DNA of 64,000 nt, taken from the NCBI GenBank assembly GCA_030148005.1, contig JASBUI010000011.1, positions 1,557 to 65,556 on the forward strand, read 5' to 3'. The DNA comes from Paracoccaceae bacterium. GTDB lineage: Bacteria; Pseudomonadota; Alphaproteobacteria; Rhodobacterales; Rhodobacteraceae. Shown here in pieces: positions 56,377 through 61,017 of this stretch; the first letter of the stretch is position 1; every line of letters starts with the position of its first letter. The notes under the pieces were generated by a model that was not told the DNA's origin, did not search any database, and was given only the letters and a program-made list of their open reading frames with translations. A program made the position numbers and the translations under genes.

Positions 56377-59300
56377 ATGGCACTGGATGCGGCACAGTCT
56401 GAAGAGCTTAAGTCTCAGATCGCAATTGCGCGGAAACGGCCGCTGAACTTCGGCATCTGCCTTGCCTCCAAACCCGAAGACACCGCGCTTATCATGCACC
56501 GCATGAAGTCGCCCGATGTTCTTGCGCGCACGGCCAAGAAGGAAGGCGAGGGGAACAAGGTCACCTTCGGCACCATGTCGTGCAAGGGCAAGGTCCTGAC
56601 CCTGACCATCGATGGCAAGCTTTTGCCGGGGATGGCCAAGAAGACCAAACTGTTTCTCAGGCAGGCGGGTCTAAAGCTGACAGTGGTTCTTCTGGATCCT
56701 GACGGCGGTGTGTTCGAGCAGGATGTCGACGACGAAGATGAAAGCAGTGATGGCGGGTCCTTCGAGGGGGATGATCCTGATGCGATCCGCTGGGCCCGCA
56801 CCGAGGCGCGAATGACGCCGCAGGTTGCGCGTGCGGCTTCAACTTCCGGTGATGGTGACCCTACAAAGCTTCGGGCGGTCTGGGCCAAGGCGCTGGAACT
56901 GGGAAATGGCGGGGACTACGCCAGTGCGCTGAAGATAGCCGACGCGCTTGCGGTCAAGCTGGCGGCAGCGGGGGTCGATCAGGAAGGTGACGGCGGCGCG
57001 GATGCCGCGCGCGAAGAATGGCTGGCGCGGCTGGCGCAGATCAAACGCCCCTTTGCGGCGGCGCTGAAAAGCGGGCAGGGCGATATCAGCAGGATGCGCG
57101 CGATCTGGGCTGCTGCGAATGAAAAGGCGGATGCATCGCCGCCGGACTATGCTTATGCGCTTCGCGCTTTGGGCAAGTTGCAGGAAATGCTGGACGGGCT
57201 TTCGTCGCTTAAGGTCGATGAGCCTCCCACACCTGGGGCGGACGGCACAGTCGAGGCCGCGGCCAAAGCGCATGATGCGCTCGCGGCAATGAAGGGCAAG
57301 ACCGACGCGCTGAAGGCAGTCTTTACTGCGCTTCCCGATCGGCGTGATGCCGGTATGGCCCTTGCGGCGGCTGTGAAGGATGCGGTCGCACTGCGAAAGC
57401 CAAAAGAGGCAGAGGATGCGCTGGCCGCGATCGACAAGTTTCTGGCCGACGCCGAGCCGCAGATTGCCGCCAAGGCGGTGTGTCTTCGCGATTTGCCGCT
57501 GTTGCAGGCGCGGCACGCAAAGATCGATCAATTGCCGCCAGCCACGCCCATCCTTGCCACGATCGCTGCGGCGCGGGACGCTGCAACGCCTGCTGCTGCC
57601 GGCCCCGATTGGGTTGTGGGTAAGGCGGCGCTTGAGGATTGGGCGGGTAAACTGACAACCGCCGAAGCAGAGCAAGCGGCATACGTTGAAAAACGCGATC
57701 TGTTCGGGACCAAGCGAAAGGCGCTTGAGGATAGCTTTGCGCCCGTGAAGGCCCGGATGAAGGCATTTACCGACGTCGACTATGCGCCCATGGCGACGCT
57801 TTCCAGCGGTCCCGCTCTGGCGCAAGCCAGGACTGAAACGCTGGCGCTATCGGCGCGCATTGATGCGGTTGTGGCCGAGGCCGCTCCGGCCGATCTGGAC
57901 GCGGGGATCGCAGCCGTCGATACGGCGGCGGGCGAACTTAAGTCATGGATCGACGGGGAAGGGGCGCTAACCGCCAAAGCGGCCGGACTTGGCGCCGAGG
58001 CGCTGGATGCTTTAACGACCGCATATAATGTGATCAGCGCGTCGGTCGATAAAAGTCGGAACCTGGTCCCAAGCGAGTTTGACGGCAAACTTGCGGCCTC
58101 GGACCTTTCCGACGCCAAGGCTAAATACGACGCGATGGTTCAGTCCTATACCAAGCTTGAGGCCGCGTGGAGTGGAAGCTCGCCCGATGCCGTGACGCTA
58201 ATGGCCTTGATGCCCGAAGTGGAAGTCCTGAGGCTTGCGGCGGAAGCGTCCAGCACTGCTTACTGGGTGGCCTGGAAGAAGAGCGAAGAAAAACGGTTCG
58301 ATGATCTGGGCTGTTCCAGTGCTGATCGGGACCTTATCGTCGATCTGGCCTATTCCAACTTTGACGCGTTTAACGCCATCAGCAGTTCGCTGAATGCAAC
58401 TTCAGCTGCCGTTGATGGCGCGCCAGCAACTGCCGAGACGATTTCCCAGAAAGCCGCCGAGTTTGCCCAGACCCAAGCAGACTGGAAAGCGGCGACCAAG
58501 GCAAAGGGCGATCTTGAGAAAGAGCACAAAGCCCTAAACGACGAGGCGGGCGAGCTGCAAAAGCAGATCGAAGAGCTAGACCAGAAAATTTCCTCTGGCG
58601 CAGATGAAGCTGAAGGCGGCCCAACGTTTGCCGAGCAAAAGGCAACCGTTGTGGCGCAGAAACAGGCCAAGGATGCCGAAGTGACCGCCAAGGGCGAAAA
58701 AGTCACCGAGAAACAGGCCGAAATCGATGCATTGAACACCCAATGGGACAAGCGATCCCAAGCACAAAAGGCGGCCATCCAGCGCAAGGCGATGATCGAT
58801 GCGATGACGCATGGGCCGCTTTCCGCTGCGGCCGGGCACGGGTTCAGCGATGAGCAAAAGGCGAAACTGGCGCGCGCTTATGGCGTGGGTCACGGCTTTG
58901 GCGAAAAGACCGCGATGCTTGCGGCTGGCAGTGACACGCCGGACAAGGTGATCGAAACGGCGGAAAAGATTATGGATGCCTGGGAGGCTTCCGGTTCCTA
59001 CTTCAACGACGAAAATTACACTGGGGAGTTTGCGAAAGGGGCGCTGGAGCGTGCGGTGCGCCTTGGACCGGAATACCTGACAGAGCTAGAGGCGCATATT
59101 AGGGCGGGCAACACGTTCTGGGACGATCCCTCGCTTGCCGGAAATCCAAAGCCGACGGAAAGGCATCGCAGGCGGGCCCAGTTTGCGGCCGAAGCGCTGC
59201 TGGTTGAAAAGACGACAACGCCGCAGGATGGCTCTACGCCCACGACAGAGCTTAAGCTTGATCCCAATGATCCGAATTTTGTCAAAGCCCTGTCGAACAT

Positions 59301-61017: not shown

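Follow-up and report, generated by a model that had tools for sequence, protein, structure and literature searches.

A window of 64,000 nucleotides from the genome of a Paracoccaceae bacterium (assembly GCA_030148005.1, contig JASBUI010000011.1, positions 1,557 to 65,556 of the forward strand) harbours a gene encoding a multidomain protein of 1546 amino acids, followed by a small gene encoding an acidic partner protein of 148 amino acids. The large gene starts with ATG, is the sole long open reading frame (ORF) of its stretch (56377 to 61017, forward strand), and its translation reproduced the extent and the length given in the initial annotation, which had been made from the sequence alone. 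A G-rich stretch resembling a ribosome-binding site was found directly 5′ of the start codon at position 56377. The small gene, at positions 61045 to 61491, was missed in the initial annotation. The C-terminal domain of the large protein carries invariant Gln, Cys, His and Asn residues in the order known from papain and calpain, and the two genes are linked in genomes of four phyla. The features of the locus are listed in Table 1.

Table 1. Features of the two-gene locus (positions in the 64,000-nucleotide window; pLDDT, predicted local distance difference test score; AF2, AlphaFold2)
Feature	Position	Strand	Basis
Gene for the 1546-amino-acid multidomain protein	56377..61017	+	ORF translation; full-length homologues
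N-terminal domain (N-dom), alpha/beta module, residues 1-115, net charge +7	56377..56721	+	alignment; AF2 pLDDT 80.8
Acidic linker DVDDEDESSDGGSFEGDDPD, residues 116-135, net charge -10	56722..56781	+	model pLDDT <50
Ala-rich helical spacer, residues 136-1004, 21% Ala	56782..59388	+	composition, homologue alignment
C-terminal putative catalytic domain, residues 1005-1546, large unannotated family	59389..61014	+	profile search; AF2 pLDDT 93.3, predicted template modelling score (pTM) 0.90
QGEVGSC: Q1059 (putative oxyanion-hole Gln) to C1065 (putative nucleophile)	59551..59571	+	invariant 139/139; model
DGSSKFG (D1198-G1204), invariant D/S/G at the turn of a conserved beta-hairpin in the Cys-His insertion	59968..59988	+	alignment, model
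H1333 codon, putative general base	60373..60375	+	invariant 148/148; model
Hairpin of two 30-residue helices, residues 1417-1485, K/E-rich, within the His-Asn insertion	60625..60831	+	model helices 413-442 and 452-481, pLDDT 95-98
DTNWG: D1495, N1497 (putative third catalytic residue; alternative D1495), W1498, G1499	60859..60873	+	N 147/147, W 147/147, D 144/147; model
AAGGAG ribosome-binding site of the partner gene, 8 nucleotides ahead of ATG	61031..61036	+	sequence
Partner gene, 148 amino acids, acidic (net -11), unannotated family	61045..61491	+	27 nucleotides past the stop of the large gene; conserved linkage

Domain organisation and invariant residues

The protein begins with a compact N-dom, for which AF2 predicted the secondary-structure order alpha-beta-beta-alpha-beta-beta-alpha-beta-beta, and which matched nothing in Pfam, PHROGs or, by Foldseek, the PDB. 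N-dom is followed by an acidic linker, whose acidic character is kept in all N-dom proteins, and by the long helical spacer. The spacer contains a coiled coil at approximately residues 680 to 805 (positions 58414 to 58791), and its helical stretch around residues 750 to 950 is conserved across the family. The acidic linker and the Ala-rich middle with a coiled coil had been described in the initial annotation, and both were recovered here. The sole Pfam, NCBIfam and PADLOC matches of the 1546-amino-acid protein are coiled-coil noise from the same region. Transmembrane-like segments are absent from the whole protein, as had been stated before, with a highest 19-residue Kyte-Doolittle mean of 1.47. 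A substrate of a type I secretion system with RTX repeats was considered as a candidate and rejected, as the repeats were not found.

In the C-terminal domain, QGEVGSCF begins at residue 1059, with Q1059 and C1065 six residues apart, H1333 is located in GMHSF, and N1497 in DTNWG. These positions had been assigned in the initial annotation and are confirmed here. Conservation was determined in a hidden Markov model alignment of the best 150 representatives, with 139 to 148 residues counted per column and identities of 25-40% to the window protein. Q1059, G1063, S1064, C1065, H1333, N1497 and W1498 are 100% conserved, so that the Cys, His and Asn columns, singled out earlier for such a check, are all invariant. 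D1495 (144/147) and F1066 (135/139) are near-invariant. Among the other invariant positions we found D1198, S1201 and G1204, which belong to the DGSSxG hairpin turn, as well as P1270, W1271 and G1276. The DGSSKFG turn is possibly part of a substrate site. This conservation strongly supports the assignment of Gln, Cys, His and Asn as the putative catalytic residues.

The large gene had been regarded as an orphan, and a word-indexed search detected only 13 relatives, two of which, P0002 and P0003, possess the C-terminal domain and retain all three motifs. Nonetheless, a profile of the C-terminal 540 residues, searched against 1.84 billion cluster representatives, detected 1047 homologous clusters at E ≤ 1e-3, of which 194 remained at E ≤ 1e-30, which rules out the orphan-gene reading. 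In most full-length matches, proteins of about 1000-1400 amino acids, the domain sits C-terminally, and the full-length architecture is conserved among the homologues. Every named member is annotated as hypothetical protein. Searches of Pfam, NCBIfam, PADLOC and PHROGs with the whole protein, single domains, the partner and 13-38 family members returned only coiled-coil noise. The PDB sequences, searched with the single protein, three profiles and a spliced core-only profile, contained nothing relevant, and literature searches on the family found nothing.

A genome scan identified 49 loci, which belong mainly to the Rhodobacterales (Paracoccaceae, Roseobacter group). Further loci were present in Acetobacteraceae, Burkholderiales, Chthoniobacter and other Verrucomicrobia, and Myxococcota, and partial matches in Waddliaceae and Puniceicoccales. 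The distribution is patchy and crosses phyla. Cultured bacteria that carry the module include Sedimentitalea nanhaiensis DSM 24252 and Tritonibacter litoralis. Three proteins of 560-880 amino acids from Waddliaceae, an uncultured bacterium and Puniceicoccales (L049, L050 and L051) match over only about 70 residues around QGxVGSC, lack a recognisable DxNWG, and may be related to the domain more remotely. In Chthoniobacter flavus Ellin428 (L033, 6546-9633) the large gene consists of two overlapping ORFs, owing to a frameshift, a pseudogene or an assembly error, and the downstream partner gene is intact.

Partner gene and exchange of N-terminal modules

In each of the 45 related loci that hold a complete gene pair (45/45), which represent four phyla, the large gene is directly followed by a homologue of the partner gene. 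The gap between the two genes ranges from -25 to +60 nucleotides, with a median of about 35 in the 45 pairs. The two genes are the only ones conserved across the loci; the other ORF clusters that recur are antisense shadows or reflect synteny within single lineages. Between the C-terminal domain and the partner, the similarity matrices are correlated (r=0.79; Mantel test, 0/2000), and the nearest neighbours are concordant in 28 of the 45 pairs. One metagenome-assembled genome (JBCDGG010000022.1; L028, 145-4533 and 5718-10116) possesses two full modules of different subfamilies in tandem, and each of the two partners is nearest to the partners of the relatives of its own large protein. The two genes are therefore both strictly linked and co-divergent.

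The product of the partner gene possesses no hydrophobic segment and has no Pfam match. No homology was detectable between the partner and any part of the large protein, and consequently the idea of a prodomain-like inhibitor is unsupported. Natural fusions of the two proteins were absent among the 150 representatives, and orphan partner genes were absent within 8 kb on either side of the modules. The partner is probably an inhibitor or immunity protein that keeps the putative protease in check.

Different N-termini were found ahead of the C-terminal domain. N-dom and the acidic linker head 26 of the 45 paired genes of the genome loci and 44 full-length representatives. A second start, type B, is helical with the motif LTxxQxxFLxxYL and occurs in 42 representatives (e.g. 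P0029, P0040, P0121), and a third, type C, carries a WVxxVLG motif and occurs in six (e.g. P0053, P0065). Neither the type B nor the type C N-termini matched Pfam or NCBIfam. The partner gene is present downstream whichever of these at least three N-terminal types the large protein bears.

N-dom is also found on other proteins. Residues 1-272, which comprise N-dom and the first helical repeats, also head Leisingera proteins of 1830-1850 amino acids with a different C-terminus. These lack the Cys, His and Asn motifs, and their genes lie between a META-domain gene on the upstream side and a CpXC-domain gene on the downstream side. Since the partner is common to all N-terminal types and N-dom occurs on other C-termini, we take the partner to be tied to the C-terminal domain and the N-terminus to be an exchangeable addressing module. 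The Leisingera genes (L052, 7299-14223; L057, 11341-18286) are located on chromosome and plasmids, often on plasmids, where they adjoin repA/parAB. Short proteins of 211-237 amino acids (P0177-P0182; L054, 5119-8472) consist of N-dom, the acidic linker and a short helical tail. At L054, a gene encoding Peptidase_C14 (caspase-like) and PG_binding_1 domains is located two genes downstream of the short N-dom protein.

Upstream of the large gene the window harbours an mrp operon, and downstream convergent genes encode an M20 peptidase/amidohydrolase and a DUF1028 protein. The initial annotation had correctly named the mrp operon as the upstream flank; its downstream amidase, however, is not directly next to the large gene, as the conserved 148-amino-acid gene intervenes. 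The GC content is 0.56-0.64 within the large gene and 0.54-0.63 in its neighbours, in agreement with the native composition noted earlier by eye. Scans of the locus revealed no overlapping Rfam families or tandem repeats. In the related loci the genomic context of the family differs between lineages, and the neighbours are housekeeping genes. The first mrp gene of the window (50248-53178) encodes a 976-amino-acid MrpA/MrpB-type fusion (Proton_antipo_M, MbhD/MbhE and MnhB), which is ordinary for an mrp operon.

Predicted fold and comparison with known systems

The C-terminal domain, residues 1005-1546, was modelled with AF2 from a 50-sequence alignment. In the model, helix 1065-1077 (model residues 61-73) starts with C1065 and strand 1333-1337 (329-333) with H1333, and D1495 and N1497 are located on the next strand, 1491-1500 (487-496), which is followed by four more strands. 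The papain-like core has been defined as a helix with an N-terminal Cys followed by an antiparallel sheet, in which strands 2 and 3 bear the His and a polar residue (PMC10318531). The placement of Cys, His and Asn on the predicted secondary structure agrees with this definition, and we consider a papain-like fold of the domain likely.

The intervals between the conserved residues are long, with 268 residues from Cys to His and 164 from His to Asn, and both are filled by well-modelled insertions. For the second interval the initial annotation had offered two explanations, a divergent or interrupted variant of the fold with a K/E-rich insert, or a wrongly assigned Asn. Given that the insertion is conserved, well modelled and carries the helical hairpin listed in Table 1, the gap is best read as a structural arm and not as a misassignment of Asn.

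Mean-field direct coupling analysis of 159 sequences yielded only four pairs that exceed column shuffles, none of them directly between Cys and His. One covarying pair above the shuffles, G1279-S1334, puts the invariant PW...GG loop beside the residue adjacent to the His. A sub-threshold register paired strand 1328-1332 with 1540-1543. With hhalign, Q1059 and C1065 aligned onto Q19 and C25 of papain, with a pairwise P of 0.003-0.006, and the calpain-1 core gave P 0.09-0.19; in both comparisons the match was confined to the Cys motif. The domain had no Pfam match to the catalytic core of Peptidase_C2, even at E ≤ 10.

Similar to the clan CA peptidases of families C1 (papain) and C2 (calpain), the domain possesses the order Gln, Cys, His, Asn, with the Gln six residues before the Cys, a G-S-C-aromatic sequence, and the Asn near Trp-Gly. 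In papain the spacing from Gln to Cys is likewise six, and this order of residues is not known from any cysteine-peptidase clan other than CA. The positions of the Cys at the N-terminus of a helix and of the His and Asn on successive strands of the model are also shared. The differences from clan CA are considerable. Neither profile searches nor Foldseek revealed a similarity of the family to any member, the Cys-His and His-Asn intervals are filled by conserved helical and hairpin insertions, the sequence at the Asn is N-W instead of N-x-W, and the domain spans about 540 residues instead of about 210-330. The resemblance to clan CA proposed in the initial annotation therefore holds for the order and invariance of the residues and for the expected secondary-structure elements, and does not extend to a profile or Foldseek tie to papain, calpain or any solved structure.

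For the gene pair, the closest parallels are staphopain-staphostatin (scpAB, sspBC) and SpeB-Spi, in which a papain-type protease gene is followed by a gene for a small cytoplasmic protein specific for that protease; here, inhibition by the partner is putative. Staphostatin is an inhibitor specific for the staphopain encoded next to it. Staphopain and SpeB possess a signal peptide and a propeptide and are about 40 kDa in size, whereas the 165 kDa protein of the window possesses neither, and no sequence similarity connects these pairs with the module described here.

Like the polymorphic toxin-immunity systems described by Zhang et al. (2012, PMC3482391), the locus combines an N-terminal module, a long spacer and a putative C-terminal enzymatic domain, and the small gene immediately downstream goes with the C-terminal domain as its cognate partner. 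N- and C-terminal modules are mixed and matched in both, and both show tandem divergent modules in one genome. Unlike those systems, the present one shows no recognised trafficking domain (PAAR, RHS, LXG, TPS, MIX etc.) or linked secretion genes, its constant part is the C-terminal domain and not the N-terminus, and no orphan immunity cassettes were seen. In architecture only, the protein also resembles separase with securin, in that a giant helical polypeptide ends in a cysteine protease and has a small controlling partner, with protease and control both putative here. Separase is however a eukaryotic clan CD enzyme with a caspase-like fold and the His before the Cys, and is not homologous.

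Proposed function and alternative explanations

The family lacks annotation and combines a probable enzyme of known kind with an unusual architecture. The explanation that we favour, with a probability of about 0.6, is an effector of modular build that acts as a thiol protease and is accompanied by a cognate partner, an inhibitor or immunity protein, with no known export route. According to this proposal, the two genes would form a self-contained module, in which the first encodes a swappable N-terminal module with an acidic linker, a helical spacer or scaffold of about 870 residues and the 540-residue catalytic domain. The latter would be a very divergent, heavily inserted thiol enzyme of clan CA type, most likely a peptidase. 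C1065 at the helix N-terminus would serve as nucleophile and Q1059 would form the oxyanion hole, H1333 would act as general base, N1497 (or D1495) would orient the His, and W1498 would shield the pair. The product of the second gene, which has its own ribosome-binding site, would be an acidic cytoplasmic partner; most probably this partner would bind the protease and render it harmless in the cell that makes both proteins. Delivery to an export route or to a particular place in the cell is the most probable role of the N-terminal module.

The role of effector or toxin suggested in the initial annotation is neither shown nor excluded. The linkage of the partner and the mix-and-match N-termini fit an effector-immunity logic and thereby lend this role indirect support.

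Several results weigh against the proposal as a whole or against parts of it. No signal peptide, known trafficking domain or adjacent secretion genes were found, and copies of the C-terminal domain are absent from plasmid and phage collections searched by tblastn and from scanned viral contigs. A reading of the module as phage or plasmid cargo was rejected. Peptidase matches are absent from the Pfam, NCBIfam, PDB-sequence and core-only profile searches, and the hhalign match to papain is confined to the Cys motif. With Foldseek the model of the domain has no PDB or viral neighbour at E < 0.6, as the best PDB hit (E=1.9) is unrelated and the best BFVD hit has E=0.66. Because such a neighbour is lacking, the papain-like fold is one that we infer. 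Insertions often defeat structural comparisons of papain-like proteins (PMC10318531). N1497 abuts the Trp directly. At the Asn motif, papain has N-S-W and calpain N-P-W, and the N-W found here makes the third catalytic residue uncertain. Finally, one subgroup, the P0003 type, has no downstream partner gene. Proteins of this type (L002, 5981-11317; also P0016, P0106 and P0151) have about 1770 amino acids and a catalytic domain enlarged by about 330 inserted residues.

As evidence of export is missing, the main rivals of the effector proposal are an intracellular regulated protease and, with less likelihood, a defence system. In the first, the scaffold protease would stay cytoplasmic and act as a switch, with the partner as regulator, chaperone-inhibitor or substrate, analogous in architecture to separase-securin or calpain-calpastatin. 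Signal peptides, transmembrane segments and secretion genes are absent in about 50 loci, the composition is native, the chromosomal site lies among housekeeping genes, the full-length architecture is conserved, and the partner gene was not encountered alone in the 8 kb flanks; all of this is in agreement with such a switch. However, N-module swapping and the reuse of N-dom with other C-termini and partners are typical of conflict or effector systems, and the patchy cross-phylum distribution, the varying genomic context and the tandem divergent paralogous modules in one genome also argue against it. We consider it unlikely.

Another rival concerns the chemistry of the domain, which could be a papain-fold non-peptidase, such as a transglutaminase, deamidase or acyl/acetyl-transferase, with the same set of Cys, His and polar residue. 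That the domain matches no peptidase family profile is compatible with this. The papain-like superfamily includes such enzymes, among them many bacterial toxins (PMC10318531). At the level of motifs, which is the only level at which the argument applies, the conserved Gln six residues before the Cys, the Asn in place of Asp and the adjacent Trp nevertheless point to a peptidase. All three are typical of peptidases of families C1 and C2. We consider a non-peptidase quite unlikely.

A two-gene anti-phage or abortive-infection system, in which the N-terminal or helical part would sense infection and the protease would be the effector, appears very unlikely. The self-contained two-gene form of the module, its patchy distribution, variable context and modular sensor-spacer-effector layout would suit a defence system, as would weak matches, at the level of coiled coils, to SMC-like defence proteins. 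Nonetheless, the PADLOC matches of the large protein do not rise above coiled-coil noise (E ≥ 0.004), the partner matches nothing in PADLOC, the neighbours are housekeeping genes and not defence islands, and no NTPase or nucleic-acid-sensing domain was found. That the three motifs are a chance resemblance in a non-catalytic domain, as the lack of homology to known enzymes detectable by sequence or Foldseek could suggest, was rejected as extremely improbable on the conservation evidence, because Gln, Cys, His, Asn and Trp are 100% conserved at 25-40% identity, and the first four are absolutely invariant in about 140 sequences and placed at a helix N-terminus and strand starts.

A bolder version of the effector proposal is a new class of conflict or signalling system, in which a giant scaffold would bear a structurally unprecedented, inserted thiol protease under the control of a dedicated partner, and interchangeable N-terminal targeting modules not recognised before (N-dom, the LTxxQxxFLxxYL helix and the WVxxVLG motif) would direct it to an equally new export route or cellular target. 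We advance this only tentatively and regard it as somewhat unlikely. If it were true, the N-modules would point to many more giant effectors that have so far gone unnoticed in the Roseobacter group.

If the effector proposal is confirmed, the module would represent a large, wholly unannotated cysteine-protease family with more than 1000 clusters at 50% identity, abundant in marine Rhodobacterales, with a catalytic core that holds so many insertions that it escapes present-day profile and fold searches. With its obligatory partner gene, the family offers a direct experimental handle. The interchangeable N-modules could flag further giant effectors, their delivery route or their cellular target, which would be relevant for competition in the Roseobacter group or for the interaction of these bacteria with algal hosts.

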